Shown here: piece by piece, positions 16,750 to 46,358 of the stretch | How the letters are laid out: the number at the start of each line of letters is the position of its first letter | Numbering within the stretch: position 1 is the stretch's first letter | Assembly: GCA_903893855.1 (NCBI GenBank) | Contig: CAITNV010000054.1 | Coordinates: 32,562 to 96,561, forward strand | Length of the DNA stretch: 64,000 nt | Source of the DNA: Candidatus Tayloriibacteriota bacterium | GTDB taxonomy: Bacteria; Patescibacteriota; Minisyncoccia; Phycocordibacterales; PALSA-1337 | Direction: 5' to 3' | Translations under genes and position numbers: made by a program | The notes under the pieces: model-generated | Databases searched by the model: none | What the model was told of the DNA's origin: nothing | The model's input: the letters and a program-made list of their open reading frames with translations, nothing else

Positions 16750-16755
16750 ATTGTA

Positions 16756-18573: not shown

Positions 18574-18580
18574 ACTGGTA

Positions 18581-20152
18581 TTAGTTTACACCATTATTCG
18601 CAGTCGGGCTAAATGTCTGACAAGCATAGAGCCGGTTATTTGCATCTGACTGTATTGGATCGATGGTAGAACGCAATGTGGTTAGATCTGTATTTGATTG
18701 GGTTACTGCTGCAGTTGACGGAAGGTTACCACTCGCCGCTAAGCCCTGTAACTGCTGGCTTGGATCATTGAGGCCGGTTGCGTTCTGGGCGTCTGAGAAT
18801 TTATTTGCAAGATCAATCAATGATTGATATGAAGAGCTTGCATTGTTGTATTTTACGGTGCTCTGGGCTACAAGAGGCGCGACTTGGGTAAGAATTATAG
18901 TGTTAATCTGGTCTAGCTGACCTTGAGCATGAGCGACCGCAAGTGCATTCGTTTGATTACCTACACCGTAACTTGGTTGTGAGTACTTTGTAATCAAATC
19001 GTTGTTACAACTTTGTGCTTTATTGAGTGTCGTTTGTGCAGCAAGTACAATGTTGAGGCCTACTTGGGCGTTCTGTGTTACTTGTTGAGCATTGTTTAAA
19101 TACGGCTGTATATTATTAATCGTAGACGCCTGTACAGATTGAAGATTATTGCTCTGCTCAGCTTGTATTTGCTGAACATACGCGGTGTTACTTGTTCCAT
19201 TTGAACCGCTAATTGCACCAAGGCCACTCTTAAGTGCAATAAGAACGAGCTGAGAGAAAGCGGCATTAATAATCGCATTAATATCATTTGCGAGTTCAAG
19301 CTCATCAGTTGGTACGCCGAGACTTTTATTAAGTGTGGCCGAAATAGCGCTTCCTGGTGTCTGAACCTCACAATCCTGTCCTGTACCTTGGCCCGAATAG
19401 TCTTCTGGATCGTCAGTACATTTTTCGAAAGAAAGAAAGCCGTTCGCACTTAAAACAAAGTTTTGTTTTAAGGTGACTTGTTGGCCGATTTTTGCATTGA
19501 GATCACTTTGTGCAAGAAGAAATGCACCATTTGGATTGTTTGCTGGTACTGTGGTTAACGTAAGAAATGCCGGCCATCCTCCTTGTCGGAAATCACCAGC
19601 CGTAAAGCCATTTATTGAAGCACCTTTAACGGCGTTCTTTGTATTCTTTACCATGTCACTTAATGTACATGTATAGGGGTTTTTGATTCCTCCCGACATC
19701 TCGAGTGCTAGAGAGATTCGAACACTTATATTAAATGGGCTACAAAGGCTCGCCGCGAGAGGGCTGACACTTGAGAGGAATTTACCCGCAATCTGATCAC
19801 CCACTCCTTCGAAGAATTTTGTTGGATTCTGGATAAAAGAAGGGCTACCATTAAAACCTGAGTTAATCCAAGAGATTATACTAAGGGTTAATTGTTGAAG
19901 TATTTGCTTCACAATCATTACCGCTACTTTATCGAGGCTAAAAGATTTTAGTTGAAGTAATGACTCGGATTGTGCGGATACTCCAGCAGATGCTGCAATT
20001 GTACTAGTGTTTGTTTCTACAAGTATGTCTGAGACGATGTCCCCCGCTCCAAACAATGCATCAACCTTTTTTGGTGCATAAAGTTGTGAGCTTGCAAGTA
20101 CAACAAGCGCGAAGGATATAATGATTGATGTTTTTTTAAAAAAGAAATTCAT
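18581..20152 (-). CDS. Hypothetical secreted Gln/Asn/Ser/Thr-rich protein (523 aa)
   Basis: The signal peptide is MNFFFKKTSIIISFALVVLASSQLYA. The protein is low-complexity Q/N-rich and has a few Cys residues. Confidence 0.55.
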   Translation of the reverse strand: MNFFFKKTSIIISFALVVLASSQLYAPKKVDALFGAGDIVSDILVETNTSTIAASAGVSAQSESLLQLKSFSLDKVAVMIVKQILQQLTLSIISWINSGFNGSPSFIQNPTKFFEGVGDQIAGKFLSSVSPLAASLCSPFNISVRISLALEMSGGIKNPYTCTLSDMVKNTKNAVKGASINGFTAGDFRQGGWPAFLTLTTVPANNPNGAFLLAQSDLNAKIGQQVTLKQNFVLSANGFLSFEKCTDDPEDYSGQGTGQDCEVQTPGSAISATLNKSLGVPTDELELANDINAIINAAFSQLVLIALKSGLGAISGSNGTSNTAYVQQIQAEQSNNLQSVQASTINNIQPYLNNAQQVTQNAQVGLNIVLAAQTTLNKAQSCNNDLITKYSQPSYGVGNQTNALAVAHAQGQLDQINTIILTQVAPLVAQSTVKYNNASSSYQSLIDLANKFSDAQNATGLNDPSQQLQGLAASGNLPSTAAVTQSNTDLTTLRSTIDPIQSDANNRLYACQTFSPTANNGVN

Positions 20153-20158
20153 TATATT

Positions 20159-21088
20159 TTAATGTAAATTTGGCGCAATGATATATCCCGCTTCAGTTGG
20201 TGTGAATGTGATATTTGCTGATTTCAAATATTGACCGACCTCAGTTAGGGCATTTGAAAGATCTAGAACACCTTTTTGATATGCACTAAGTCCCGCAAGA
20301 CTTGTAATGCCGTCAGAATATACTTTCGCTAGGCTTTCATCGGCAAATACTATTTCATTCATTGCATTTACGAGATCAACATGAATTTTTGTTAGCGCTG
20401 ACGGTGCCGGAGTTGCGATAAAATTTTTTAAAATGTTTTGATACGAAGTGATGATCGGGTCGAGCTGTTTGAGCAAGTCAGGGTTCTTTGTATTGAGGCT
20501 GTTTTGCACAATTTCCGGTTCGTATGAATGAATTGTGGTGTTAGCCTTGATGACGGTGACAATAGAATTAACGTATCTTTTAATCGAAATGACGCTATTA
20601 TCAGGTGTAATTAAGATATCTTTTGAGGTGTAAACTTTCGGAGTCGCAATATATGTCCCATCGGCCAAGACCTGATTAGTGATCTGTTGTTGAATTTGCG
20701 GGTCATTAAAATTAACTCCTGCCTTTTGGTATTCAGCATATTTTGAAAAGAGATCTCGGCTAAAAAGGTCAGTCGCCGTAAGGTTAGTTTGTACTGGTGC
20801 CGCTTTCCCTGTTGCCCATGTTGAACTAGCTCCGAGTGTTCCAGAAAGAGACTTTTGCCAATTACCCTCATATGCAACAAGTGAGTTTTGTATAGATGTT
20901 GTAGCGGTCATAATTGCTTTATTGAGCGTAGCAACCTGCTGCTGTTGAGCAACACTCGCATCATTTTGGTATTTTGAAACCACAAAAGCACCAAGGATAA
21001 TAAGGACAGCAGTCGTAATTAGTATAAAGTTTTTAGCGCTAGGTTGTTTCAAGGCGTGTAGCTGGCTAGTAATTTGCATATAGAGCAA
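20159..21088 (-). CDS. Hypothetical bitopic membrane protein (short cytoplasmic N-terminus, one TM, about 260-aa extracytoplasmic domain). Its topology is VirB8-like, but no similarity is claimed. It is the first gene of the T4SS-like operon.
   Basis: The TM is FILITTAVLIILGAFVV. The upstream 21089-21174 region is AT-rich and promoter-like. Confidence 0.5.
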   Translation of the reverse strand: MLYMQITSQLHALKQPSAKNFILITTAVLIILGAFVVSKYQNDASVAQQQQVATLNKAIMTATTSIQNSLVAYEGNWQKSLSGTLGASSTWATGKAAPVQTNLTATDLFSRDLFSKYAEYQKAGVNFNDPQIQQQITNQVLADGTYIATPKVYTSKDILITPDNSVISIKRYVNSIVTVIKANTTIHSYEPEIVQNSLNTKNPDLLKQLDPIITSYQNILKNFIATPAPSALTKIHVDLVNAMNEIVFADESLAKVYSDGITSLAGLSAYQKGVLDLSNALTEVGQYLKSANITFTPTEAGYIIAPNLH

Positions 21089-31804: not shown

Positions 31805-33283
31805 CTATGATACGTGGTGTTTCCGTTTTATATCCTCAATATTGGAGTTTTCGAGTTCGTCACGCTTATCTTCGCCTTGTTTGCCAAGCTTTTTAAGGTC
31901 ATTATCAGGTAATTGAAGCAACTCAAGTGTTCTTTTTGTTAGATATTCGATGTTGTTGAGGGTAGGATTCTCCAAGACCTCTTCAAGGAGTGCGTTTAAT
32001 GTCCAGCCAATTTTAGGACCTGGGTTAATCTTCCCTATTTCCATAATTGCCTTTCCGTCAACTTTAAGCATTACTACTGAGATTGGGTCTCGAAGTGCTT
32101 CTTCTATCATTGATTTGTATTTACGCAGTCTGTAAGGACTTTCTTTCGGTCTTCCCGTTCCTATACGATCGCAAATGCGGATGTTTACTAAGTCCCATAT
32201 ATCGTCTTTCCCTACATTAGCTATCATTCTGCGTACAGCAGATAATGTTATTGTTTCAGTATCTGAGAAAAACATATGCCATCGCACTAGTTTCACTACT
32301 TTATCTATGATTTTACGAGGGAATTTGAGTCTCTCAAGAATACTCTCTGTTTCACGTGAACCAACCACCTCGTGCCCGTAGAACGTAAATTGATTGGTTT
32401 CACGTGAAAAACGACGTGTTTGAGGTTTAGCTATGTCATGAAACAGAGCCGCAAGACGTATTTCAAGTAGCCATTTTTTGTCAGCAGCGTGTTGCATTGT
32501 TCTTAGACAATGCTCCCAGACGTCGAATGAGTGTGCCTGATTCTGTTCAACATTAATGCCCTTTTCAAGCTCCGGTACGATATATTGTAAAAGACCGAGA
32601 CTATGCAACAGCTCAATCGCTTCTTTCGGCTTGTCCGATAGGAGTATTTTAGTAAACTCATCCCTAACCCTTTCACGTGAAACACCTGAAAGAAGGCCTG
32701 ATTTAGCCATAATTGCACTTCTGGTCTCTGCGTTAATCGTGAAACCTAACTCAGCGCTTAAACGAACAGCCCTAATAAGACGTAAAGCGTCTTCCTCGAA
32801 ACGTTCCTCAGGCTTCCCTACGGTCCTTATTACTTTGTCCTTTATGTCCTTTATTCCTCCGAAAAGGTCAACCGTGTCTTTTATGACTCCATTTGAGACA
32901 TTTATAGCTATTGCATTAACTGTGAAGTCACGTCTCTTGAGATCGTCTGATATGTCTTTAGTAAAGACGACACTATCTGGCCGTCTATGGTCGCTATATA
33001 CCCCTTCAATGCGATATGGAGTTACTTCTATAATCTTGAGTGTTTCGTCCTGACTATCCCCATAGACCACACCCACAGTGCCAAAGGTGTTTTCATAGAA
33101 AGTTTTAGGAAACAGTGCAACGATATTTTCCGGTGTCGCGTTTGTAGTTATATCCCAGTCTTTCGGTTTCTTGCCAAGGAAGAAATCTCTAGTGCAACCG
33201 CCCACCATGTATGCCTCAAAACCTGCCTTCTCTAAGACGTCGATTGTATTAGTTACTTGTGTTGGGATTAGTTCGGATTGCAT
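31805..33283 (-). CDS. cca: CCA-adding tRNA nucleotidyltransferase (PolyA_pol head plus HD domain)
   Basis: The motifs GGCTRDFFLGKKPKDWDITT and HDIAKP (HD domain) are present. The start was set at MQSELIPTQ, an internal Met of the 519-aa track ORF. Confidence 0.85.
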   Translation of the reverse strand: MQSELIPTQVTNTIDVLEKAGFEAYMVGGCTRDFFLGKKPKDWDITTNATPENIVALFPKTFYENTFGTVGVVYGDSQDETLKIIEVTPYRIEGVYSDHRRPDSVVFTKDISDDLKRRDFTVNAIAINVSNGVIKDTVDLFGGIKDIKDKVIRTVGKPEERFEEDALRLIRAVRLSAELGFTINAETRSAIMAKSGLLSGVSRERVRDEFTKILLSDKPKEAIELLHSLGLLQYIVPELEKGINVEQNQAHSFDVWEHCLRTMQHAADKKWLLEIRLAALFHDIAKPQTRRFSRETNQFTFYGHEVVGSRETESILERLKFPRKIIDKVVKLVRWHMFFSDTETITLSAVRRMIANVGKDDIWDLVNIRICDRIGTGRPKESPYRLRKYKSMIEEALRDPISVVMLKVDGKAIMEIGKINPGPKIGWTLNALLEEVLENPTLNNIEYLTKRTLELLQLPDNDLKKLGKQGEDKRDELENSNIEDIKRKHHVS

Positions 33284-33428
33284 ATATTTACATTGATTAT
33301 TCATCAAACAGTCAATTATTTTTATATGGTAGCATTTTTTATTTAAAAACAGAATTTTTGACATGTCTAAGAATGTTTCGGTCTTGTTATTTGAACATAA
33401 TTGTATAATAATATTGTTATATAATAAT

Positions 33429-34178
33429 ATGGATAATGTCCAATTAAAAAATAGAGCTATAAGACTTAGAGAAGAGGGTTACTCTTATTCTGAGATAGAA
33501 CGTGCACTTTTTATCCCGAAAAGCACATTATCATATTGGTTGAAGGGGATTTCGCTTAATTCGGATCAAATAATTGGACTAAAGAAACGAAATCTTGAAA
33601 AGGGGAGTAGGGGACGCTTCTCCAATTCAATTAACCTGAAGGTAAGAAAAGTCCATAGAGAGCAGGTCGCGCATTCGAGGGCCAAGTATGAGTTTGATAA
33701 GATAATTAACCCTGTTCACGTGCATTACCCATTCACAACAGTCATAGGTGATACACGCCTAAATAATCTATTTGTAACTGGTGTAAGCCTGTATCTGGCA
33801 CATGGCGGAAAGACTGGTGGATATTTCCAATTTATGAGTTCAGATCACCAGATACTTGGTATTATGATTGATTGGATTGAGGTTTTTCTTAATATTGATA
33901 GGAAATCAATCAAATACAGGCTTATTATTCATGAAAGCTACAAAGATCAAGATATTGAAGGCTATTGGATCAATGTATTGGGGATAAATAAAGAAAATAT
34001 GCAAAAAAGCATATTTACTACCAAGGGTATAGAACGTAATAAGAGGCCTGCATATAAGGGTTCTATTGGTATAGTGATCACCAATATCGAGGTATTTAGA
34101 AGGGTAATGGCTTGGCAAAATCTACTTATCAAGTATTATAAGGGTGTAAGTGATGGGGAAAGTGAATTGCTCCCGTAG
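33429..34178 (+). CDS. Hypothetical protein with an N-terminal HTH motif (LREEGYSYSEIERALFIPKSTLSYWLKG). The C-terminal domain is unknown.
   Basis: The ORF track gives 33363-34178. The start was chosen at MDNVQLK. The 3' end overlaps the tRNA-Arg gene by about 10 nt. Confidence 0.5.
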   Translation: MDNVQLKNRAIRLREEGYSYSEIERALFIPKSTLSYWLKGISLNSDQIIGLKKRNLEKGSRGRFSNSINLKVRKVHREQVAHSRAKYEFDKIINPVHVHYPFTTVIGDTRLNNLFVTGVSLYLAHGGKTGGYFQFMSSDHQILGIMIDWIEVFLNIDRKSIKYRLIIHESYKDQDIEGYWINVLGINKENMQKSIFTTKGIERNKRPAYKGSIGIVITNIEVFRRVMAWQNLLIKYYKGVSDGESELLP

Positions 34179-34240
34179 TGAAATGGATATCACATCAGTC
34201 TTCGGAACTGCTGTTGGGGGTTCGAATCCCTCCGGGAGCA
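34169..34240 (+). tRNA. tRNA-Arg (anticodon TCG), no encoded CCA
   Basis: The 72-nt sequence folds manually into a cloverleaf. It has a 7-bp acceptor stem (GCTCCCG/CGGGAGC), a D-arm, an anticodon loop cTTCGga and a T-arm GGGGGTTCGAATCCCTC. Confidence 0.6.
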
Positions 34241-34304
34241 CAAGAAATATGGCAGAAAAGACATACTTCTGTTAGAATAATGTTGTAAATTTATTGTAGG
34301 TAAT

Positions 34305-34378
34305 GCGGGCATGGTTTAGTGGTAGAACACGTCCTTGCCAAGGACGAGACGGGAGTTCGATTCTCCCTGCCCGCACCA
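34305..34378 (+). tRNA. tRNA-Gly (anticodon GCC), CCA encoded
   Basis: The sequence GCGGGCA...TGCCCGCACCA folds as a cloverleaf. The anticodon stem-loop is CGTCC-TTGCCAA-GGACG and the T-loop is GGGAGTTCGATTCTCCC. Confidence 0.8.
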
Positions 34379-34417
34379 AATTAGCTGAAATATAAGGGTC
34401 ATTGTTTCGGACAAAAC

Positions 34418-34438
34418 TGTGGATAACTCTGTGGATAG
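34418..34438. promoter_or_regulatory. Tandem DnaA boxes (TGTGGATAA, a perfect reverse complement of TTATCCACA, and TGTGGATAG) upstream of yraN
   Basis: The sequence is directly visible at aaaactgtggataactctgtggatagtg. It lies outside the origin region. Confidence 0.45.
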
Positions 34439-34570
34439 TGTTGGTAAAAGACATAAAAAATGGCTTATATTCACAAGGTCATTTTAAAGTAAAAAGTCAG
34501 TTTAGTCAGAATACTCTTATTTTAAGGGCTATATTCGTAAAAAGACATTATTTAACACATTACGGACAAA

Positions 34571-34966
34571 ATGTTTAAGAATACTAAAGAAAAAGGTGCG
34601 GCAGGTGAGGAAATAGCTTGTAAATATCTAGTGAAAAACGGTTTCACTATCCTTGATAGGAATTATCAAAAAAAGTGGGGAGAATTGGATATTGTCGCTA
34701 ATTATAAGGGTATACTTAATTTTATTGAGGTAAAGAGCGTGCTAGGTAGTATAAAGGACGCTAAAGGTGATACAGATGCGGGCTATAGGCCAGAAGATAA
34801 CGTGCATATCCGTAAGCAGGGAAGGCTACGACGAGTAATACAGTCATATTTACAAGAGAGGGGCTATTCAATTGAAACCGATTTCTGTTTTACAATTGCT
34901 ATTGTTGTGATGGATATTAAGCTACGCAGAGCAAAAGTGAGACTTATAGAAAATGTCGTCTTTTAG
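34571..34966 (+). CDS. yraN: YraN family (UPF0102) putative endonuclease
   Basis: The motifs GEEIACKYLVKNGFTILDRNYQKKWGELDIVA...FIEVK carry the conserved YraN core. Confidence 0.8.
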   Translation: MFKNTKEKGAAGEEIACKYLVKNGFTILDRNYQKKWGELDIVANYKGILNFIEVKSVLGSIKDAKGDTDAGYRPEDNVHIRKQGRLRRVIQSYLQERGYSIETDFCFTIAIVVMDIKLRRAKVRLIENVVF

Positions 34967-35037
34967 AAAAACCAATAAATATGGAGTTTTTCGCCTTGCT
35001 GTGGTACGATGTGGAAGTTATTATTTTATTTAGTTTT

Positions 35038-35113
35038 CGGAGTGTGGTGTAACGGCTAACATCCTTGTTTTGGGAACAAGTGACTCCGGGTTCGAATCCC
35101 GGCACTCCGACCA
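35038..35113 (+). tRNA. tRNA-Pro (anticodon TGG), CCA encoded
   Basis: The sequence CGGAGTG...CACTCCGACCA has an anticodon stem-loop CTTGT-TTTGGGA-ACAAG and a T-loop CCGGGTTCGAATCCCGG. Confidence 0.8.
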
Positions 35114-35135
35114 GTTTGTGATAAAATTAGACAAT

Positions 35136-35206
35136 GCGGGATTAGTTAAATGGTATAATAACAGTTTTCCAAACTGTGGTCGGGAGTTCGATTCTCCCAT
35201 CCCGCA
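35136..35206 (+). tRNA. tRNA-Gly (anticodon TCC), no encoded CCA
   Basis: The sequence GCGGGAT...ATCCCGCA has an anticodon stem-loop ACAGT-TTTCCAA-ACTGT and a T-arm GGGAGTTCGATTCTCCC. The D-loop is short. Confidence 0.7.
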
Positions 35207-35216
35207 CAATAGACAT

Positions 35217-35786
35217 ATGAAATTAAAAGATAACTATGCAATAGTTATGATAGGGAAGACTCATACTGGTAAGACTACATTTGCTCAGGATATAGTTAAA
35301 AGACTCAATACCTTCGAGATATTAGAAGCTGATGCGGTAAGTTTATTTCTTAAGGCGAATTTTCCGCTACTTCGGGAGATCGATAAATCAAAGCATGGCG
35401 TTTGGGAAACACCGACATTAAAATTGCTTCTTTTCCAAGATATCGTTAAATATGCCTTTGTAAATAATCTTAATGTGATTCTTGCGAATTCTAACTTATC
35501 CACAAAGGTTAGATCCGAAAACCTTTTTTAAGCTAAAGAATTCAGATACAAGACAATAGGTATTTTCTTAAATTACTCTGATGATTCTATCAATCGACAC
35601 ATCGCTCAATCTGTAAGAGCAACTGAAGTGCTCAATAAAACAAAGACATATGATGAATTGCTCGTAAAACAAAAGAAAATGCTCGAAGCTCCTTCTTCAA
35701 ATGAATTTGATTATTTTCTTGAGGTAACAAAACCAGAAGATCTTGTGTCGATTAGGGAGAAAGTTATTTCAATTGTATCAACATAA
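35217..35786 (+). pseudogene. P-loop NTPase (AAA/kinase-like, Walker A GKTHTGKTT) interrupted by an in-frame TAA at 35529-35531. The same reading frame stays open for another 84 codons.
   Basis: The first part is MKLKDNYAIVMIGKTHTGKTTFAQDIVKRL...VRSENLF. After the stop, the frame continues AKEFRYKTIGIFLNYSDDSINRHIAQ...EKVISIVST. The N-terminal part of track ORF 35070-35531 overlaps the tRNA genes and was trimmed. Confidence 0.5.
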
Positions 35787-35892
35787 ATATGAATAAAGTG
35801 AGTATGTCCCCAACACGTAGACATACGACAGGGAAGAGGCAACAAAAAACCGCTTTATGCGGTCTTTTGTTGCTTAAACTAAGCAAATAGAG

Positions 35893-36165
35893 CTATTTAA
35901 CTGCGTCCTTCAAAGCCTTTGCTGCTCGGAACTTAGGAACTCGCATTGCTGGAACTTTGATTGCTTCGCCAGTTCGAGGGTTTCGAGCTTCTCGTGCTGC
36001 TCGCTGCTTCACTGAGAAGATACCAAGACCTGCAACTGAAACCTCTTCGCCCTTCTTCATTGTATTGACGATTGAGTCGAACACTACGTCAACGGCCTGT
36101 TCTGCCTGAACCTTAGTACCACCTAATATTGCATGGACTGCATCTACGATTGCTGCTTTATTCAT
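35893..36165 (-). CDS. hup: DNA-binding protein HU
   Basis: The sequence is MNKAAIVDAVHAIL...GEEVSVAGLGIFSVKQRAAREARNPRTGEAIKVPAMRVPKFRAAKALKDAV. The start was trimmed to the internal Met. Confidence 0.9.
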   Translation of the reverse strand: MNKAAIVDAVHAILGGTKVQAEQAVDVVFDSIVNTMKKGEEVSVAGLGIFSVKQRAAREARNPRTGEAIKVPAMRVPKFRAAKALKDAVK

Positions 36166-36311
36166 GAAAATATATTTATTACTATTAATAATGGGTTTAA
36201 CCACTGCAATCATTATATCGTAAGGGTTTTTTGACGCAATAGCCTAAAAATAGCGACACAATATTACCTTATCGGCAAATATGTGTCGCTATTTTTTATG
36301 GTGACGATATA

Positions 36312-37841
36312 TTATCGAGCAAATTCAACTGCACGTAGCTCACGAACGATGGTAACCTTAATTTCCCCAGGATATTTAAGGTCCTTTTCGATTTTTAGGG
36401 CTATATCGCGGGCCATGTTTCGAGCTTCCAAATCAGTAACATCTTCGGGTTTTACAAATATTCTGATTTCACGGCCAGCTTGAAGGGCGTATGACTTCTC
36501 CACACCCTTAAATCCATTTGCAATTGCTTCTAGATCACCAAGCCGCTTGAGATAATTCTCAATACTATCACTACGAGCCCCCGGACGTGCTCCAGATATT
36601 GCGTCTGCGGTTTGCACAATGCGCGATTCAATCGTTTCATAAGGATATTCCTCATGATGTGCTTGCATTGCTTTGATGATATCTTCGTTCGCGCCAAATT
36701 TCTGAAGTATTCTGCGGCCAATCTCTACATGTGTGCCAGCTACTTCGTGATCGAGAGCTTTACCAAGATCGTGCAGAAGGGCACCAGCTTTCGCTACAGC
36801 AACGTTTGCTCCAATCTCTTCCGCTATCATACCCGCAATGTGCGACATCTCTATTGAATGCTGCAATACATTCTGGCCATAGCTCGTTCGGAAATGTAAA
36901 CGACCGAGTATTAATAGTATTCGTGGATCAAGGCCAACAACACCACACTCATATGCTGCTTGCTCACCCTTCTCTTTAATACTCTTATTGATGTCGGCTT
37001 GAGCCTGTTCAACCGCCTTCTCGATCTTAGCTGGTTGGATACGGCCATCTTTAATTAACTCTTCAAGTGCAGCCTTGGCTACGTGACGTCGTACAGGATC
37101 GAATGATGATATGGTAATAGCCCCAGGCGTATCATCGACAATCACTTCAACTCCAGTCATACGTTCGAATGCCTTAATGTTGCGACCTTCTTTCCCGATG
37201 ATTTTACCTTTTATCTCGTCGTTCGGAATGCTGACATTGGTTGACATTACATCTGCAGCTACGGAACTCGCAAGGCGCTGGATCGACATTGCTAAGATAT
37301 CCTTGGCTTTATTCTCGAGGGTTTCTTGTCCTGATGTTTCGAGCTTTTGAATCCGAACTAAAAGGTCCGCTTCGGCGTTCTTTTCAATTGTTTTAAGCAA
37401 TTCGGTTCTCGCTTCTTCTTCAGTCAATCGTGCAGTCTTTTGAAGTGTTTCTTTTTTCTCTTGCTCTATCTTTTCTGTTCGATCTCGAATAATACGGATC
37501 TCAGATATTCTCTCTTTTATGATTTCAACTTCCTTATCAATATCGGTTTGACGCTTGTCGAGAAGGTCTTCTTTCTTAATAAGGCGGCTTTCTGTTTGTT
37601 CGGCTTTCTCTTCTTTTTCACGGATATCTTGTTTGCTCTGTTCAATAAGTGTATCTGCTTTCGTCTGTGCTTCAGTCGTAATCTTCTTTGCTTCTTCCTT
37701 TGCTGTTAGCAACATCTCTTTGATATCTAATTCCATCGAACCTTTTTTGCCAAGGGAGATGATGAGTCGAAGATAATATCCAATTGCAATACCTAAAATT
37801 CCTGCAATACCTAATAAAATAACAATTACTTTTAATGACAT
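36312..37841 (-). CDS. rny: Ribonuclease Y
   Basis: An N-terminal TM is followed by a Lys/Glu-rich coiled coil, a KH domain (GKIIGKEGRNIKAFE) and an HD domain (LLHDLGKALDHE). Confidence 0.9.
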   Translation of the reverse strand: MSLKVIVILLGIAGILGIAIGYYLRLIISLGKKGSMELDIKEMLLTAKEEAKKITTEAQTKADTLIEQSKQDIREKEEKAEQTESRLIKKEDLLDKRQTDIDKEVEIIKERISEIRIIRDRTEKIEQEKKETLQKTARLTEEEARTELLKTIEKNAEADLLVRIQKLETSGQETLENKAKDILAMSIQRLASSVAADVMSTNVSIPNDEIKGKIIGKEGRNIKAFERMTGVEVIVDDTPGAITISSFDPVRRHVAKAALEELIKDGRIQPAKIEKAVEQAQADINKSIKEKGEQAAYECGVVGLDPRILLILGRLHFRTSYGQNVLQHSIEMSHIAGMIAEEIGANVAVAKAGALLHDLGKALDHEVAGTHVEIGRRILQKFGANEDIIKAMQAHHEEYPYETIESRIVQTADAISGARPGARSDSIENYLKRLGDLEAIANGFKGVEKSYALQAGREIRIFVKPEDVTDLEARNMARDIALKIEKDLKYPGEIKVTIVRELRAVEFAR

Positions 37842-38034
37842 GTGCCGGTGCGGCGTCGTTTTTTAGTTTGTAGCGATACTAATATGTATGTAATGAAAGG
37901 GGAGTAGAAAGAAAGATTCAGGAAAATACTGTAATTCATTATATTCATTAAAGGAGCTTTTCTGAAAAACTAAGCCGGAAAATTAAATCCAGTAATAAAC
38001 ATATAGTATAACAACTTGCTACGGAAGTCTAGAG

Positions 38035-38604
38035 TTAGAGAACTTTGTCGATGATGCCGTATTTTTTGCCTTCTTCTGCTGACATGAAGAAATCTCGATC
38101 AACGTCCTTCTCAATTTTAGAGAGTGGCTGTGAAGTATTTTTTGCTAACATTTTGTTCAGATTCTCTCGGAGCTTGAGAATGTGTTTTGCGCTGATCTCG
38201 ATATCTGAAGCTTGTCCCTCAGCTCCTCCTAATGGTTGATGAATCATAATCTCAGAATTCTCGAGGGCGTATCGTTTGCCTTTTTCTCCAGCTGACAAAA
38301 CAAGAGCTGCACCTGAAGCAGCGATTCCTACGCAGACGGTAGAGACATTATTTTTGATGTGGTTCATCGTGTCGATAATTGCCAAAGTTGCGGTAACTGA
38401 TCCTCCCGGAGAATTGATATAAAGATTGATGTCTTTTTTTGAATCTTCTGATTGGAGGAAAAGGAGTTGCGCAATAATAATGTTAGCGACATTGTCGTCA
38501 ATTACTCCACTCAAAAAGACAATGTTGTCTTTTAATAGACGTGAATAGATATCGTACGCACGTTCGCCAAAATTTGTTTTTTCTATAACGGTTGGTATAA
38601 GCAT
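38035..38604 (-). CDS. clpP: ATP-dependent Clp protease proteolytic subunit
   Basis: The motifs [18 protein letters not shown] and catalytic Ser/His/Asp context ([16 protein letters not shown]) are present. Confidence 0.92.
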
Positions 38605-38684
38605 GTCGGCATTATTGCATACTATTTTAAATTAATAAAGTAGCGTGAAACATCTTTAGTGATATACTATTTTTATACAACTTT

Positions 38685-39437
38685 ATGCGACTGCACAGAT
38701 TTTTTATCGGAGACTTTTCTGAAACTAAGAAACACAACGGAACGAACGATGTAAGGGGAATCGTTGAGGGCAGTACTATCACCTATGCACAGGGCACACA
38801 CCAGTGGCAGAGGGTTTTTCGGTTTGGCGCAGGTGATCGTGTTTTACTTTTTGATGGTTCAGGAAATGACTATCTCTGTGAAATCAAGGAATATCAAGGC
38901 GAAACGACGATTCTAACTGTGGTGAGTGCGGAACCAAATAATGTGAAACCAAGTCGCGATGTTATTCTTGTTTCGGCGTTAGTAAAGAAAGATACATTTG
39001 AATGGATTGCTGAGAAAGCGACGGAGTTAGGTGTTTCACGGTTAGTTCCACTTCTCGCTGAACGAAGTGAAAAGAAAAACATCAATGAAGATCGTCTCGA
39101 GAAAATAATTATCGAAGCGTCTGAACAATCAGGTAGAGGCACTTTAATGGGACTTGATTTGGTCAAAGACTTGTCGCTTATCCTAAAGGACAAACGTCTT
39201 ATATCACATGCAATTGTCTTTGAACCAACAGGAAGAAAATTTGAAGCAAATGATTTTGACCCTAATGCTTTTGATCAAGAAAAACCGCTAACAGTTTTCA
39301 TTGGCCCTGAAGGTGGATGGTCAGAAAAAGAACTTGAATTGTTTGTCGAAGCAGGTATTCCGGTGGTCTCTCTTGGGCCACAAATATTACGTGCAGAAAC
39401 TGCAGTCATAGCTGCCCTTAGTTTGGTTGTTTTTTAG
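38685..39437 (+). CDS. rsmE: 16S rRNA (uracil1498-N3)-methyltransferase RsmE family
   Basis: The protein starts MRLHRFFIGDF. A PUA-like N-terminal domain and a SPOUT C-terminus (FIGPEGGWSEKE) are present. Confidence 0.8.
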   Translation: MRLHRFFIGDFSETKKHNGTNDVRGIVEGSTITYAQGTHQWQRVFRFGAGDRVLLFDGSGNDYLCEIKEYQGETTILTVVSAEPNNVKPSRDVILVSALVKKDTFEWIAEKATELGVSRLVPLLAERSEKKNINEDRLEKIIIEASEQSGRGTLMGLDLVKDLSLILKDKRLISHAIVFEPTGRKFEANDFDPNAFDQEKPLTVFIGPEGGWSEKELELFVEAGIPVVSLGPQILRAETAVIAALSLVVF

Positions 39438-39602
39438 TTGGTATCCACAACGTCTGTATAATAGTGAAGAACTTTCCCTCGTATCACTTGACGCTTGATT
39501 ATTAACCCCATTTGCTATAAGCTTACGGCAATCAGAGAGTTACTCTCTTTTTTAATTTATACGTTTTATTAACACCATTATTTATTAACTTACGCAACAT
39601 AT

Positions 39603-41768
39603 ATGCAACGCGATTATCCACTTGAGAGAGTTCGAAACTTCGGTATCATTGCCCACATCGATGCGGGTAAGACTACGACATCAGAGCGCATTCTTTACTA
39701 CACAGGAATGATCCATAAGATCGGAGAGGTTCACGATGGTGCAACTACAACCGACTGGATGGAACAAGAACGAGAGCGAGGTATCACTATTACTGCCGCT
39801 GCGATTACTTGTTTCTGGAATCCAACATATGCAACTGGTCTTAAGGGTCCAGATGGTAAGCCTGATGTTTCTCACAAAGTTCGTTTCAATGTTATCGACA
39901 CACCAGGACACATTGACTTCACAGTTGAAGTGAAGCGATCACTCCGAGTGCTCGACGGTGCTGTTGTGGTATTCGACGGTGTTGCGGGAGTGGAGCCACA
40001 GTCTGAGACCAACTGGCGTTACGCAGATGAGAGCAATGTGCCACGACTCTGTTTCATCAATAAGATGGACCGAACTGGTGCAAGCTTCGAGAAATCATTC
40101 GCATCTATCCTTGAGCGTTTGAATAAGCACGCTATTCGATTCCAACTTCCTATTGGTCTTGAAGGCGAACATAATGGTGTCGTAGACCTCCTTCGAATGA
40201 AGGCATATTACTTCGATGGCGAAAAAGGTATTAATGTTCGTGAAGAAGAGATTCCAGCTAATCTCGTAGACGATGCAAAGAAATACCGCGCTGAGTTAAT
40301 TGAGAAAGTTGTTGAACATGATGACGTCCTTATGCAGATGTATCTTGATGGAAAAGAGATTGCACTTGCTGAATTAAAGAAGGCTATTCGTAAGGCGGTT
40401 ATTGCCAATAAAATCTTCCCAGTATTTACAGGTTCTGCTTTGAAGAACGTTGGAGTTCAGCTCGTACTTGATGCGGTTGTTGATTACCTCCCATCTCCAC
40501 TCGATATCCCTGCTGTTAAAGGTATTAACCCAAACACAGGTGAAGAAGTTCTCCGACATGCATCTGATAGCGAACCGTTTTCTGCTCTCGCTTTCAAACT
40601 CCAGAACGACCCATTCGTAGGACAGCTCACATTCTTCCGAGTGTATTCTGGATCTATTGAAGCTGGTACTTATCTATATAACTCTTCAACTGGTAAGAAA
40701 GAACGACTTGGCCGAATCGTACGATTGCAAGCTAACGATCGAGAAGAAGTTAAGAAAGTATATGCTGGAGAAATTGCAGCAGCGGTGGGTATTAAGGATG
40801 CACTTACATCTAATACATTCTGTGATGAAGAGAATCCAATCGTCCTTGAAACTATTAAATTCGTTGACCCTGTGGTGTCTCTACGTATTGAGCCTAAGAC
40901 AAAAGCCGATCAAGAGAAAATGGGTATGGCTCTACGAAAGCTTGGTAATGAAGATCCAACATTCAAAATCTCATCAAACAGTGAGACAGGTGAGACTATC
41001 ATCTCAGGTATGGGTGAACTACACCTTGAAATTATGGTTGATCGAATGAAGCGAGAGTTCGGTGTGGAAGCAAACGTTGGTAAGCCTCAGGTAGCGTACC
41101 GAGAAACTATTCTTGGTGAAGCAGAAGCTGAACATAAATACATCAAGCAGACTGGAGGTAAGGGTCAGTACGGTCACGTAGTCCTAACACTACGCCCAAT
41201 GCAGCCGCTTGTTGAGGGTGCGAAGATCCCAAAGAATGTTAGCCGATATGATGACTTTGAGTTCATTAACTCTATTAAAGGAGGTGTTATTCCAAACGAA
41301 TTCATTCCTGCGGTAGAGAAGGGTGTTCATGAGGCTATGGATCGAGGTATTGTGGCTGGTTATAAGATGGTAAATGTATCTTGTGAGCTAACATTCGGTA
41401 GCTATCACGATGTGGACTCATCTGAAATCGCTTACAAAATCGCTGCATCTCAGGCATATCAGGATGCTGCAAAGCGTGCAAAACCCGTTATCCTTGAGCC
41501 TATTATGAAGCTCGAAGTACTTTTCCCAGATAAGTTCATGGGAGACGTTACAGGCTCTATTTCTTCAAAACGAGGTACAATTGAGGAAATGACTGAGCGA
41601 GGTCAGGCTAAAGTGCTCCATGCTAAGGTTCCTCTTTCAGAAATGTTCGGATACACCACACAGCTTCGTTCTATGACATCAGGTCAGGGAAGCGCAACAA
41701 TGGAATTCGATCATTATGAAGTGGTTCCAAAGAACGTAGAAGCTACAATTATCGAGGCAAGAAAGTAG
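39603..41768 (+). CDS. fusA: Elongation factor G
   Basis: The motifs IRNFGIIAHIDAGKTTTSERIL and DTPGHIDFTVEV are present. The protein is 721 aa. Confidence 0.95.
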   Translation: MQRDYPLERVRNFGIIAHIDAGKTTTSERILYYTGMIHKIGEVHDGATTTDWMEQERERGITITAAAITCFWNPTYATGLKGPDGKPDVSHKVRFNVIDTPGHIDFTVEVKRSLRVLDGAVVVFDGVAGVEPQSETNWRYADESNVPRLCFINKMDRTGASFEKSFASILERLNKHAIRFQLPIGLEGEHNGVVDLLRMKAYYFDGEKGINVREEEIPANLVDDAKKYRAELIEKVVEHDDVLMQMYLDGKEIALAELKKAIRKAVIANKIFPVFTGSALKNVGVQLVLDAVVDYLPSPLDIPAVKGINPNTGEEVLRHASDSEPFSALAFKLQNDPFVGQLTFFRVYSGSIEAGTYLYNSSTGKKERLGRIVRLQANDREEVKKVYAGEIAAAVGIKDALTSNTFCDEENPIVLETIKFVDPVVSLRIEPKTKADQEKMGMALRKLGNEDPTFKISSNSETGETIISGMGELHLEIMVDRMKREFGVEANVGKPQVAYRETILGEAEAEHKYIKQTGGKGQYGHVVLTLRPMQPLVEGAKIPKNVSRYDDFEFINSIKGGVIPNEFIPAVEKGVHEAMDRGIVAGYKMVNVSCELTFGSYHDVDSSEIAYKIAASQAYQDAAKRAKPVILEPIMKLEVLFPDKFMGDVTGSISSKRGTIEEMTERGQAKVLHAKVPLSEMFGYTTQLRSMTSGQGSATMEFDHYEVVPKNVEATIIEARK

Positions 41769-41780
41769 TTCTAAAGAAAA

Positions 41781-41889
41781 TTACCCGTTTGTATTTGAGA
41801 GAAACTCTCGGAAGTTGCGAAGGCAACTGAGAGGGAGACGTCCGGTCACCAGACCGGAACGTCGGTTTCTCGAAAATACAAACGGGTAA
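41781..41889 (+). other. Highly structured intergenic element. A 16-bp perfect inverted repeat (ttacccgtttgtattt / aaatacaaacgggtaa), extendable by a 7-bp helix (gagaaac / gtttctc), encloses two internal hairpins (gttgc-gaag-gcaac and gacgtccggtc-acca-gaccggaacgtc).
   Basis: Base-pairing was read directly from the sequence. The element lies in the 316-nt fusA-tuf spacer. Confidence 0.6.
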
Positions 41890-42084
41890 TTTTCGTTGTA
41901 ACCCTTTCATTGCTTGTACATGTCGTTTAATAGTTGACTTCTATAAGCCCATTTGTTAGGATACAAAGTACGCATTTTTCTTGCGTTGGTTTGTATATAT
42001 TATCAATTTTATTAACAATTTAACTTTCTTTTGTGAATACGAGGCTCTCGCTTCGAACGTTACAAAATAAAGCAATAAAATCAT

Positions 42085-43275
42085 ATGGCAGCATCAGAAT
42101 TCAATCGTTCAAAGCCCCATGTAAACGTTGGTACTATTGGCCACGTTGACCACGGCAAGACTACTTTGACTACATCTATCCTAGCAGTACAAGCTAAGGA
42201 TGGTTTGGCTACACTTAAGGCTTATTCAGATATTGCAAAGGGAGGTACAGTTCGAGACGATTCAAAGATCGTTACGATTTCTCTTGCACACGTAGAATAC
42301 GAGACTCCAAATCGTCACTACGCTCATATCGATGCCCCAGGACATGCCGACTACATTAAGAACATGATTACCGGTGCTGCCCAGATGGACGGTGCTATTC
42401 TTGTGGTATCTGCCCTCGACGGTGTTATGCCACAGACACGAGAGCATATTCTTCTTGCGTATCAGGTTGGTGTGCCAAAGATCGTCGTTTTTCTAAACAA
42501 GTGCGATATGGTTCCTGAAGCTGACCTTCTTGACCTCGTTGAGGAAGAAGTTCGAGATCTTCTCACAAAGAACCATTATGACGGTAAGACTGCTCCAGTT
42601 GTTCGAGGTTCAGCCCTAAAGGCCCTTGAAGGAGATCCAGTTTACGTCGCTAAGATAAAAGAGCTTATGAATGCTCTTGATACATACATCCCAACGCCTG
42701 TTCGTGAAGTTGATAAGCCTTTCCTTATGCCTATTGAAGACATCTTCTCTATTGAAGGTCGAGGAACTGTAGTTACTGGTCGTATTGAGCGAGGTATGGT
42801 TAAGGTTGGTGAAGAAGTTGAGATTGTTGGATTTAAGGATACAACAAAGACTACTATCACTGGTATTGAAATGTTCAACAAGTCTCTTAAAGAGGGAATT
42901 GCTGGAGACAATGCCGGACTTCTCCTACGAGGTACTGGAAAGGATGACGTTTCTCGTGGTCAGGTTCTTGCAAAGACTGGCTCAGTTAAGCCACACACAG
43001 AATTTGAGGCTGAGGTTTACATCTTGAAGAAGGAAGAGGGTGGACGACATACTCCATTCTTCACAGGATACAAGCCACAGTTCTATATTCGAACTACAGA
43101 TGTTACTGGTGAAGTAACACTTGCAGAAAAGGTTGAAATGGTTATGCCAGGTGATACAGTAACATTCAAGGTAAAACTTGTTGCTCCTGTAGCTCTTGAT
43201 GCACAGCAGCGATTTGCCATCCGAGAGGGTGGAAAGACAGTCGGTGCCGGTGTCGTAACTAAAATAGTTGCATAA
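42085..43275 (+). CDS. tuf: Elongation factor Tu
   Basis: The motifs [26 protein letters not shown] and NKCD are present. The protein is 396 aa. Confidence 0.97.
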
Positions 43276-43302
43276 ATTAGATAAAACACATACATTAGTA
43301 CC

Positions 43303-43701
43303 ATGACATCTGCCGTAAAAGACACAAAGAGCGAAATTACAAAGAAAGCCGGAGTAAAAACTCCGAAGGTGAAGGTTTCTGTTAAAGAAGGCGAAGTATC
43401 AATACTACGTATTCGTGTGCGAGCATACGAACACAAGATTCTTGATGCGTCTTTGAAACAGATCATGGATACAGCTATTCGATATGATGTAAAGTTCTAC
43501 GGTCCTGTTCCACTTCCTACAGAAATCAAGAAGTATACAGTTAACCGTTCAGCCTTCATCTTTAAGAATGCGCGTGAGCAATTCGAAATGCGAGTCCACA
43601 AGCGACTTATTGACATTTTGAACCCTACGCCTAAGATAATTGAGGCCCTTACTAACTTAAGTCTTCCATCTGGAGTCAATATTGATGTAAAGATGATGTA
43701 A
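43303..43701 (+). CDS. rpsJ: 30S ribosomal protein S10 (with an N-terminal extension)
   Basis: The sequence ILRIRVRAYEHKILDASLKQIMDTA...GPVPLPT is the S10 core. Confidence 0.92.
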   Translation: MTSAVKDTKSEITKKAGVKTPKVKVSVKEGEVSILRIRVRAYEHKILDASLKQIMDTAIRYDVKFYGPVPLPTEIKKYTVNRSAFIFKNAREQFEMRVHKRLIDILNPTPKIIEALTNLSLPSGVNIDVKMM

Positions 43702-43738
43702 AACAATAAAGAGGTGCTCGGCTCGTATACGAAAATAT

Positions 43739-44386
43739 ATGACCAAGCCAACCACTAAATATACTGCAATGAAATTCATTCTTGGACGAAAACTTAATAT
43801 GACCCAAATCTTCGATAAGGACGGGGTTGTTCATCCTGCAACAATCATCTCTGTCACACCTATCGTTGTTACACAGGTCAAAAACAAAGAGACTGATGGC
43901 TATGCCTCAGTTCAGGTTGGAGAAGGTGTCCGAAAAGCTTCACGATTAAGTAAGGCTGTTAAAGGCCATACAAAGGAGCTTGGTAATTTTGCTAAGATTC
44001 AGGAATTCACAACAGTTGAAGGCGATTCATCTATGAAGGTTGGCGACAAAATGGACATAACACAGTTTGCAGCTGGCGACACTGTTGAAGTAAGCGCTAT
44101 TTCAAAAGGAAAGGGATTTCAGGGTGTAGTTAAGCGACACGGTTTCGGTGGGGGTCCACGATCTCACGGTCAGAAGCACTCTGAGCGAGAACCGGGTTCT
44201 ATCGGAGGAGGTCTTCGAAACAAAGTTCCAAAGATGATGCGTATGGCAGGACGTATGGGTGGAGATCGTATAACCGTGAAAAATCTCAAGGTCGTTCACG
44301 TTGATGCAACTGCAAATGAACTCTATATTTCTGGAGCGGTTCCAGGAACTCGAGGAACACTTGTGGAAATCGTCACAAAAGGCTAG
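43739..44386 (+). CDS. rplC: 50S ribosomal protein L3
   Basis: The motif ILGRKLNMTQIFDKDGVVHPATII is present. The real start may be the internal Met at 43769. Confidence 0.92.
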   Translation: MTKPTTKYTAMKFILGRKLNMTQIFDKDGVVHPATIISVTPIVVTQVKNKETDGYASVQVGEGVRKASRLSKAVKGHTKELGNFAKIQEFTTVEGDSSMKVGDKMDITQFAAGDTVEVSAISKGKGFQGVVKRHGFGGGPRSHGQKHSEREPGSIGGGLRNKVPKMMRMAGRMGGDRITVKNLKVVHVDATANELYISGAVPGTRGTLVEIVTKG

Positions 44387-44421
44387 GATATGACGACTTC
44401 ATTGAAGTAATCTAAAAAAAC

Positions 44422-45084
44422 ATGGAAACAACGATATACAATCAAAAAGGAGAGTCAGCAGGAAAAATAAAGGTTCCTGAGAGCGTCTTCGGCGTAAACT
44501 GGAATGCTGACCTCGTACATCAGGTTATGACAGCTATGCTTGGAAACGAGCGAACACCTGTTGCTCATACTAAGACTCGAGGAGAAGTATCTGGAGGAGG
44601 TAAAAAACCTTGGCAGCAAAAGGGTACAGGACGTGCTCGACACGGATCTACTCGATCTCCTATTTGGGTAGGTGGAGGTATTGCACATGGTCCTCGAAAG
44701 GATAAGAATTATTCTCGAAAGATCAATCGAAAAGCTAGCACACAAGCTCTTTATGTAGTTCTTTCTCGAAAATTCCGAGATGGAGAGATTCTTTTTGTAG
44801 ATAACCTTACTTTTGCTACACCAAAGGCTAAGGATGCAAAGGCTGTTATCTCAAGCTTTTCTAAGATTAAGGGATTCGAAAAGCTTGCTACAAAGCCAAA
44901 GAATGCAGCTTTGTTTACCATCAACAATAAATACCCAGAATTAACTAAGAGTTTTGGTAACTTCGGAAACGTAGCTATTGAAGAGCTACGAAACATCAAC
45001 CCTCTTTCTATTCTTAATCACAAGTACATTATTATTACTGATCCAAAAGAGTCATTAATGGCACTTGAGGCGAAGAAGAAATAA
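44422..45084 (+). CDS. rplD: 50S ribosomal protein L4
   Basis: The motifs PWQQKGTGRARHGSTRSPIWVGGGIAHGP are present. Confidence 0.92.
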   Translation: METTIYNQKGESAGKIKVPESVFGVNWNADLVHQVMTAMLGNERTPVAHTKTRGEVSGGGKKPWQQKGTGRARHGSTRSPIWVGGGIAHGPRKDKNYSRKINRKASTQALYVVLSRKFRDGEILFVDNLTFATPKAKDAKAVISSFSKIKGFEKLATKPKNAALFTINNKYPELTKSFGNFGNVAIEELRNINPLSILNHKYIIITDPKESLMALEAKKK

Positions 45085-45100
45085 ATTTAATTATAAAACC

Positions 45101-45481
45101 ATGGCTATTCTCTCAAAGACAAAAAAGGCAGTAAAGAAGGAAGTTGCTCCAAAAGCAGTTGCTACTTCAGCTGTCGCAACAACAAATACTGCAAATACAG
45201 TGCCAAAGCAGGAGCTTTTCACGATGACTCCTCGAATCACGGAGAAGGCTAACTTCCACGCTGAATCATTGAATAGCTATACATTTGTAGTAAAAGGTAA
45301 TTCAAATAAGAAGTCTATTGCTCACGCTATTAAGACAACATTCAAGGTCACTCCTCTTAAGATTAGAATTGTTAACACAGCAGATAAGCGTGTTTCAAAC
45401 CGAGGCCGTATATCACTTCGATCTGGTTTTAAGAAGGCGTACATCACTCTCAAAAAGGGAGATAAGATAGAAGTCGCATAA
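45101..45481 (+). CDS. rplW: 50S ribosomal protein L23 (Lys/Ala-rich N-terminal extension)
   Basis: The C-terminal core YTFVVKGNSNKKSIAHAIKTTFKVTPLKIRIVN matches L23. The start was trimmed to MAILSK. Confidence 0.88.
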   Translation: MAILSKTKKAVKKEVAPKAVATSAVATTNTANTVPKQELFTMTPRITEKANFHAESLNSYTFVVKGNSNKKSIAHAIKTTFKVTPLKIRIVNTADKRVSNRGRISLRSGFKKAYITLKKGDKIEVA

Positions 45482-45506
45482 AGCCGATTCAATATTTAAT
45501 ACATTT

Positions 45507-46358
45507 ATGAAAAAATACCACCCATCAACACCATCACGACGACATATGTCGACCATTTCTTTCAAGAAATACTTGACTGCAAGTGAACCGCATAAGGCTT
45601 TGACACATGGTTTCAAGCGAGATGTGGGCCGCAATGCTTTCGGACGTATTACGGTACGACATCAGGGTGGAGGACATAAGAAGCTCTATCGTGCTGTGGA
45701 CTTTGTCTATAACAAGAAGGATATTCCTGCGACTATTACAACTATTGAATATGATCCTTTCCGAACAGGCTTCATCGCACTCGTGAATTATGCTGATGGA
45801 GAAAAGCGTTACGTTCTTGTTCCAAAGACAACTAAGGTTGGTGATAAATTCATCGTATCTGAAACAGCCGAAGTTGTAACAGGTAATCGTCTACCACTTA
45901 AGAAGATTCCAGTTGGTACATTCGTCTACAATGTTGAAATCCGACCAGAAGGTGGAGCACGACTTGTTCGATCAGCTGGTTCATTTGGTCAGGTTATTGC
46001 AAATGATGCAGGATTTACTCACATCAAAATGCCATCTACAGAAGTACGCCGTGTAGATGAGAATGCTTGGGCAAGCATCGGTACCGTTTCAAACGATGAG
46101 AATCGGCTTGTTAATATTGGTAAGGCCGGCCGTTCTCGATGGCTCGGTATTCGTCCTACAGTTCGAGGTACTGCACAGAACCCTGTGGATCACCCACACG
46201 GAGGAGGTGAAGGTCGTCAGGGACGAGGCCTACGACGTGCTAAGACCCGTTGGGGTAAGCCGTCGGGTAAGGGTCAGAAGACTCGTACACCGAAGAAATA
46301 CTCAAACGTCTTCATTGTTTCACGAAGACGAGTGGGTAAGGCCAAGAAGGGCGAGTAG
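45507..46358 (+). CDS. rplB: 50S ribosomal protein L2
   Basis: The motifs GGGHKKLYRAVDF and GRSRWLGIRPTVRGTAQNPVDHPHGGGEG are present. Confidence 0.95.
   Translation: MKKYHPSTPSRRHMSTISFKKYLTASEPHKALTHGFKRDVGRNAFGRITVRHQGGGHKKLYRAVDFVYNKKDIPATITTIEYDPFRTGFIALVNYADGEKRYVLVPKTTKVGDKFIVSETAEVVTGNRLPLKKIPVGTFVYNVEIRPEGGARLVRSAGSFGQVIANDAGFTHIKMPSTEVRRVDENAWASIGTVSNDENRLVNIGKAGRSRWLGIRPTVRGTAQNPVDHPHGGGEGRQGRGLRRAKTRWGKPSGKGQKTRTPKKYSNVFIVSRRRVGKAKKGE

Follow-up and report, generated by a model that had tools for sequence, protein, structure and literature searches.

The gene at positions 35217 to 35786 of the analysed window, a stretch of 64,000 nucleotides from a Candidatus Tayloriibacteriota bacterium, is most probably (at a probability of about 0.8) a young, fixed nonsense pseudogene of a stand-alone, uncharacterised P-loop kinase. 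A recent nonsense mutation was one of the explanations offered in the initial annotation for the in-frame TAA that interrupts this gene, and it is the one that the analysis favors: elsewhere the homologs are intact, core elements of the kinase are missing from the truncated product, and the allele is very young. The gene is disrupted relative to its intact homologs, its essential parts are gone, and neither an intact allele in the protein collections nor a paralog in the window was found, which is what is expected of a pseudogene.

The proposed course of events is a simple one. A single base substitution would have turned codon 105, a variable codon of a surface helix, into TAA, the ancestral codon having most likely been TTA, AAA or GAA. 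Translation would now end after 104 residues, with the P-loop kept and part of the kinase core lost. The stop allele would then have become fixed within a block homogenised by recombination, and it would be too young for further lesions to have arisen in the 84 codons that follow.

The interrupted frame and its family

The reading frame starts at an ATG at 35217 on the forward strand, nine bases 3′ of the end of a tRNA-Gly(TCC) gene (35136-35207, forward strand), and encodes MKLKDNYAIVMIGKTHTGKTT... before it meets the TAA of codon 105 (35529-35531, forward strand, in the context CTT TTT TAA GCT). The pre-stop part (35217-35528, forward strand; codons 1-104, corresponding to positions 1-99 of the family HMM) carries the Walker A motif GKTHTGKTT that had been pointed out earlier, with the P-loop GKTHTGKT at residues 13-20, and also holds the near-invariant D39 and R99, strands beta1 to beta3 and a helix at residues 96-103. 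The post-stop part (35532-35783, forward strand; codons 106-189) contains strands beta4 (112-118) and beta5, a lid helix with the near-invariant R128, the residues P159 and E163, and the C-terminal helix, and is closed by a TAA at 35784-35786 (forward strand), which represents the ancestral terminator of the full-length gene, as homologs terminate at the same alignment position. The in-frame TAA and the 84 further open codons are thus confirmed from the ATG at 35217 to this final stop, and the conceptual read-through product measures about 189 aa. The chance of an open stretch of 84 codons is about 0.012, stop triplets making up 5.2% of the window.

Two ways of rescuing the gene were considered and rejected. 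Frameshifting or slippage at the T6 run would lead nowhere, as only 9 codons are open in the +1 frame and 2 in the -1 frame, and neither the gain nor the loss of a U in the run could restore the frame, as judged from the sequence. A split gene was likewise rejected, given that no in-frame start lies between the stop and codon 138; the first in-frame start past the TAA is the GTG at 35628 (codon 138), located beyond beta4 and R128.

The continuity of the protein across the TAA, which had been proposed from the character of the translation, is real, since the Pfam AAA_33 match and a leave-out family HMM both span the two halves. The AAA_33 (PF13671) match covers residues 9-137 of the read-through product, across the TAA, and scores 25.8 bits (E 1.5e-5) for the read-through product and 20.3 bits for the N-terminal part alone, in neither case reaching the gathering threshold of 27; one homolog (P0007) has a precomputed PF13671 match. 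The family HMM, built without the window sequence and run on the six-frame translation of the window, gave two matches in the same frame, one at 35034-35528 (profile positions 1-99, 110 bits) and the other at 35532-35783 (positions 104-186, 79 bits, E 1.8e-23), and no second kinase copy was found in the window by this six-frame search.

An exhaustive HMMER search (phmmer) of 1.84 billion representative proteins retrieved 108 relatives, 53 of them at E<1e-10. The full-length relatives measure 177-196 aa and align end to end, as single proteins, over query residues ~6-187. A comparison with orthologs had been recommended in the initial annotation, which held that two genuinely separate genes with their own starts would speak against an interrupted gene. 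The orthologs proved to be single: all 39 aligned homologs are uninterrupted ORFs, and so are 80 of 80 species-level loci, each under its own genetic code. In the scan behind these figures each GTDB species was represented by a single genome. It gave 198 loci, of which the best 80 were examined; the 80 belong to many lineages of Patescibacteria and to Bacillota such as Bhargavaea, Paenibacillus and Planococcus. In-frame TGA occurs in three SR1/Absconditabacteria loci, where it stands for Gly, and the remaining in-frame "stop" among the 80 marks the place where a Planococcus protein naturally ends. The best match among the GTDB species representatives, none of which is the window genome, has 41% identity and lies in a Ca. 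Taylorbacteria MAG.

At the column of the stop, the 39 aligned homologs have a variable sense residue (I6 L6 K5 V4 E4 T3 and others), which in 19 of the 39 is one base change away from TAA. The near-invariant residues of the family (G13, T15, H16, G18, K19, D39, L68, R99, R128, P159 and E163) are all present in the window sequence, and those retained include the three located after the TAA (R128, P159 and E163). Judging from these alignments, the two pieces are halves of one P-loop kinase of about 189 aa, and the gene belongs to an unnamed family of ~185-192-aa "GKTH[ST]GK[ST]T" kinases present in Patescibacteria and Bacillota. It departs from this family in not being one uninterrupted ORF, owing to the TAA at codon 105.

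The surroundings of the gene had been described as tRNA-rich and island-like. The first part of this description stands, as four tRNA genes (Arg-TCG, Gly-GCC, Pro-TGG and Gly-TCC) lie at 34169-35207. The second does not: the neighbours are housekeeping genes, encoding the CCA-adding enzyme, HU, RNase Y and ClpP, besides a UPF0102 gene, the gene order is identical in all strains, and the local GC content is only slightly lower (0.377 versus ~0.41). Between the convergent kinase and HU genes there is a terminator-like hairpin (ACCGC-TTTAT-GCGGT, 35849-35863) flanked by an A-run and a T-run, which follows the full-length frame and not the premature TAA.

Public gene calls of 137 aa (P0001, P0004 and P0006) and a 153-aa ORF with a TTG start (35070-35531) run through the tRNA-Gly and tRNA-Pro genes. 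Such upstream N-terminal extensions are spurious, and the family alignment backs the ATG at 35217 as the start. On the other side of the stop, gene callers predict a 52-aa ORF from the GTG at 35628 (P0023). The locus is best annotated as a single pseudogene at 35217-35786, which would replace the public gene calls of 94, 104, 137 and 153 aa as well as that of 52 aa.

Modelled fold and the predicted effect of truncation

AlphaFold2 was run on the family alignment with an X at the stop position, and the resulting model refers to the conceptual read-through protein only. It consists of one compact alpha/beta domain (pLDDT 91.6, pTM 0.88), with strands at residues 7-13, 33-36, 86-89, 112-118 and 166-170; residues 122-131 form the lid helix and residues 173-188 the C-terminal one. 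The position of the TAA falls between the helix 96-103 and the strand 112-118. The segment LKLLLFQD, which had been read as a Walker-B-like strand, does not qualify as one: residues 68-82 form a helix in the model and D75 is not conserved, the near-invariant acidic residue of the family being D39 instead.

Foldseek returned full-length matches to 1yj5, 3a4l, 4jt2 and 1ko4 (probability 1.0, E 2e-8 to 1e-6, TM 0.6-0.69, identity 13-20%), and the neighbours found comprise the kinase domain of mammalian PNKP, C. thermocellum Pnkp, archaeal PSTK, gluconate kinase and APS kinase. The conceptual read-through protein is accordingly modelled as a P-loop kinase fold of the PNK/PSTK/gluconokinase type. 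Like the AAA_33/PNK-like kinases (1yj5, 4jt2, 3a4l/3add and 1ko4), the window family is predicted to have a five-stranded fold, a lid and a Walker A motif, and it shares with them an Asp after strand 2 and the lid arginines. Unlike them, it is marked by a P-loop signature of its own, GKTH[ST]GK[ST]T, besides the low identity given above, and it lacks a conserved gene neighbourhood.

Two specific identities were rejected on their scores, L-seryl-tRNA(Sec) kinase PSTK (TIGR03574) with 23.1 bits versus a cut-off of 290.5, and bacterial Pnkp (TIGR04075) with 12.4 bits versus a cut-off of 750. The search of PHROGs gave only weak "polynucleotide kinase/ATPase" matches, that of PADLOC no meaningful match, and that of the PDB by sequence no match. 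In the gene neighbourhood of the family there is no recurrent neighbour beyond synteny within genera. A search for the family in phages returned no match, and one in plasmids three weak Bacillus matches.

According to the model, the 104-aa product is devoid of beta4 and beta5, that is, of two of the five core strands, as well as of the lid helix with R128 and of the C-terminal helix. It would be expected to be misfolded or inactive.

The stop allele in the population

The protein cluster at 90% identity comprises six variants on ~20 contigs, and those variants that are not cut by a contig end all terminate at ...SENLF. At the DNA level, 16 population contigs were compared, derived from many GROS21 samples, one BUCK21 sample and three Logan runs. 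All 16, which come from two diverged lineages, carry the identical TAA and contain CCGAAAACCTTTTTTAAGCTAAAGAA. No intact allele was found among the ~15 billion proteins searched, and a DNA pattern with a free triplet at the stop position retrieved no sense-codon allele from the JGI metagenomes. A protein-based scan of these metagenomes found no relatives, the population being present only in ENA/Logan data. The sequencing error that had been considered at the outset can be dismissed, because 16 contigs assembled independently from many samples show the same TAA, and the sharing of the stop by two lineages means that it is not an assembly error either. The TAA is real and fixed in every sampled strain.

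The two lineages formed by the contigs differ by ~3.5% overall and by ~5% near the kinase gene. The number of segregating sites per 100 bp is 5.2 in the gene of the CCA-adding enzyme, 5.2 in a gene of 271 aa, 15.7 in UPF0102, 5-6 in the spacers and 6.7 in RNase Y (96 synonymous and 6 non-synonymous). Whereas the surroundings thus show 5-16 sites per 100 bp, the kinase ORF has 1 segregating site in 564 bp, corresponding to 0.32 per 100 bp in the pre-stop part (one singleton, K48N) and 0 in the post-stop part. Since synonymous sites vary even under purifying selection, the common ancestor of the stop allele must be far younger than that of its flanks. The only polymorphism of the ORF is non-synonymous, and a single site has no power for dN/dS.

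The whole ORF is covered by a block without fixed differences between the lineages (35132-35830); to its right there is a singleton of one contig at 35831, and the first fixed difference appears at 35838. When the lineages are compared over 13.5 kb, a 564-bp window contains 19.5 SNPs on average and 3% of such windows contain none. Four SNP-free blocks of 494-761 bp were detected along these 13.5 kb, one at the kinase gene (35132-35837) and the others at EF-G (40404-41164), around ClpP (38234-38836) and at L3 (43736-44229). When positions 32074-45532 are set against a contig of the population (L107), SNP-free blocks alternate with stretches that diverge by 3-12%, and this mosaic of two co-occurring lineages suggests that homologous recombination is frequent in the CPR-like population. 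As the SNP-free block of the kinase gene is part of the recombination mosaic, it provides evidence neither for selection on the downstream codons nor for a sweep. The UPF0102 (YraN-like) gene (34571-34966, forward strand), directly adjoining this block, is hypervariable between lineages, with 29 non-synonymous and 33 synonymous differences and small indels.

The post-stop segment is undecayed. In a leave-one-out comparison it scores 79.1 bits and ranks 23 among 38 intact members, and its score relative to that of the pre-stop part (a C/N ratio of 0.71) is close to the family median of 0.74. The lack of decay after the stop can be ascribed to the extreme youth of the allele. An undecayed segment that keeps R128, P159 and E163 is also what continued translation would leave behind, and to this extent it counts against a pseudogene.

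Recoding, decay in relatives and rival readings

TAA is the main terminator in the window, ending 45 of the 67 long ORFs, with TAG ending 21 and TGA 1. Among the ORFs that end in TAA are rpsH and rplF, which a TAA also separates from each other, and code 11 gives a coding density of 91%. The initial annotation had advised a survey of conserved genes for further in-frame TAAs; carried out in the window, as a search for open segments of the same frame split by a single stop, it returned only adjacent genes with their own starts and antisense shadows of long genes, and no other conserved gene was demonstrably split. The genetic code is standard, with a strong bias against TGA stops. The one ORF with a TGA terminator is a DnaA-like gene (6342-7688, reverse strand) with a normal end.

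Of the bacterial stops TAA, recognised by both release factors, is the least leaky, and a following G makes a strong context; the stop of the kinase gene is a TAA-G. No stimulatory RNA structure was detected around it, as the fold of 35500-35620 has a z of +0.35 and 123 of 200 shuffles are as good or better. No tRNA with a UUA anticodon is present among the four real tRNAs of the 64-kb window, and none of the 39 aligned homologs or the 80 loci has a stop at the column of codon 105. Stop-codon recoding or readthrough, the remaining explanation offered at first, is therefore not supported. A "tRNA-SeC (tca)" of 95 nt reported by ARAGORN at 44925-45019 (reverse strand) is a false positive, because it lies antisense in the gene of ribosomal protein L4 (44422-45084, Pfam 188 bits) and even a cut-off of E<=1 yields no Rfam match.

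The closest relative of the gene (51% identity; L084-L087, eight contigs from the same sampling site) is itself broken, in this case by a frameshift at an A7 run. In L084 (4831-5399) this run is near codon 30, where the frame of the first ~29 codons (METKQKYGIVMVGKTHTGKTTFANNLVKK) gives way to the -1 frame for the remainder, and the gene lies in the middle of a contig of 92 kb. An A8-to-A7 deletion would explain the frameshift, and some product might in principle be recovered through slippage of transcription at the A-run. The L084 gene is located just downstream of a tRNA-Gly gene (CCC, L084:4518-4591); no synteny was found between the window and L084. In L089 (1228-1797) and L090, from the Logan runs SRR26831612 and SRR26831672, there is an independent TAA at codon 22 (GGA TAT TAA TTA), and the genes flanking the kinase gene also end in TAA. 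The kinase gene of these two contigs is directly upstream of an NDK gene. Another locus, L093:1480-2038, is frameshifted within an A5 run near codon 98 and lies between glycosyltransferase genes on a 22-kb contig, and L092:171-491 has lost its C-terminal half. L091 was discarded as a further lesion, as its apparent truncation is merely the contig end. Since the lesions differ in site and type, they point to the repeated decay of a dispensable accessory gene and not to a conserved recoding signal; we infer that the kinase gene is dispensable in this sense.

It has to be considered whether the allele spread because the loss of the kinase was of benefit. This would be a special case of the pseudogene, in which a loss-of-function allele passed between lineages by homologous recombination in a gene-specific sweep, with the conserved tRNA and HU genes serving as homology arms, and it is unlikely. 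The coincidence of the SNP-free block with the gene, between flanks that differ by ~5% or more, fits such a sweep, and so do the scarcity of zero-SNP 564-bp windows between the lineages and the independent inactivation of the family in other lineages. However, three further SNP-free blocks of ~500-760 bp (EF-G, ClpP and L3) in the same 13.5 kb make such blocks part of the normal mosaic, there is no sign of a benefit, and the data fit neutral hitch-hiking just as well. Somewhat more doubtful is that the TAA is leaky or programmed, being read by a near-cognate tRNA (Gln, Lys or Tyr) or a suppressor tRNA, so that the stop would act as an attenuator and some active kinase would be made. The 84 downstream codons, open against chance and undecayed with their near-invariant residues, the placement of the terminator after the full-length frame and the fixation of the stop allele in all 16 contigs would all agree with readthrough. 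Against it, the stop is conserved in none of the homologs, the relatives are broken by lesions of other kinds at other sites, the tight TAA-G has neither a downstream structure nor a UUA-anticodon tRNA in the window to assist it in a setting where TAA is the usual terminator, and the youth of the allele suffices to explain the intact downstream part. A broader proposal, that adaptive loss swept both lineages while the family was repeatedly inactivated in CPR bacteria, or else that a low level of TAA readthrough yields a trickle of enzyme, is improbable too.

Hardly credible is a functional short protein, with the 104-aa P-loop fragment working alone or with a separately initiated C-terminal fragment. 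The N-terminal fragment does retain the P-loop, D39 and R99, and the predicted 52-aa ORF could be taken for its partner, yet no start is available before codon 138, so that residues 106-137, with beta4 and R128, would be missing from both pieces. A two-piece enzyme is for this reason not plausible; in addition, the 104-aa piece lacks two of the five core strands, and no homolog is organised as two genes. A sequencing or assembly error, or a genome-wide reassignment of TAA, is virtually discarded. Nothing speaks for either except an in-frame stop beside a T6 run, whereas the 16 independent assemblies agree, no indel in the T-run would bring the frame back, and ribosomal protein genes are among the long ORFs that end in TAA.

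A nonsense pseudogene is a well-known kind of feature, and the preferred reading of the kinase gene as a young nonsense pseudogene agrees with other bacterial cases in the single in-frame stop, the intact homologs, the loss of essential parts and the unrelated lesions found in other lineages. It differs from them in being unusually fresh, with no second lesion, and in being fixed across two ~95%-identical lineages, inside a SNP-free recombination block. Known instances of stop readthrough or reassignment also bear a likeness to the window gene, namely a conserved domain that is interrupted by a stop in frame, after which the frame remains open. TGA encodes Gly in Absconditabacteria/Gracilibacteria (code 25), and in-frame TGAs decoded in this way occur in the SR1/Absconditabacteria members of this very kinase family. 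The window gene differs in that its stop is the main terminator, occurs at one site and in one lineage, and has no supporting context or structure, nor a tRNA in the window.

Beyond annotation, the significance of the locus is slight. It constitutes a clean negative control for recoding screens, as a long open frame can follow an in-frame TAA simply because the nonsense allele is very young. The repeated inactivation of the kinase family, together with the recombination mosaic in a CPR population, may be of interest for gene loss in reduced genomes, and adaptive loss, if true, would imply a recurrent selective cost of the uncharacterised kinase.

Elsewhere in the window, at 16099-21088 on the reverse strand, there are four consecutive large ORFs (309, 523, 605 and 216 aa) without a Pfam match. 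Two of the junctions in this region are in the same frame, with only a TAA and 3-6 nt in between, and the four ORFs are provisionally taken as separate genes, since every one of them starts with an ATG of its own.
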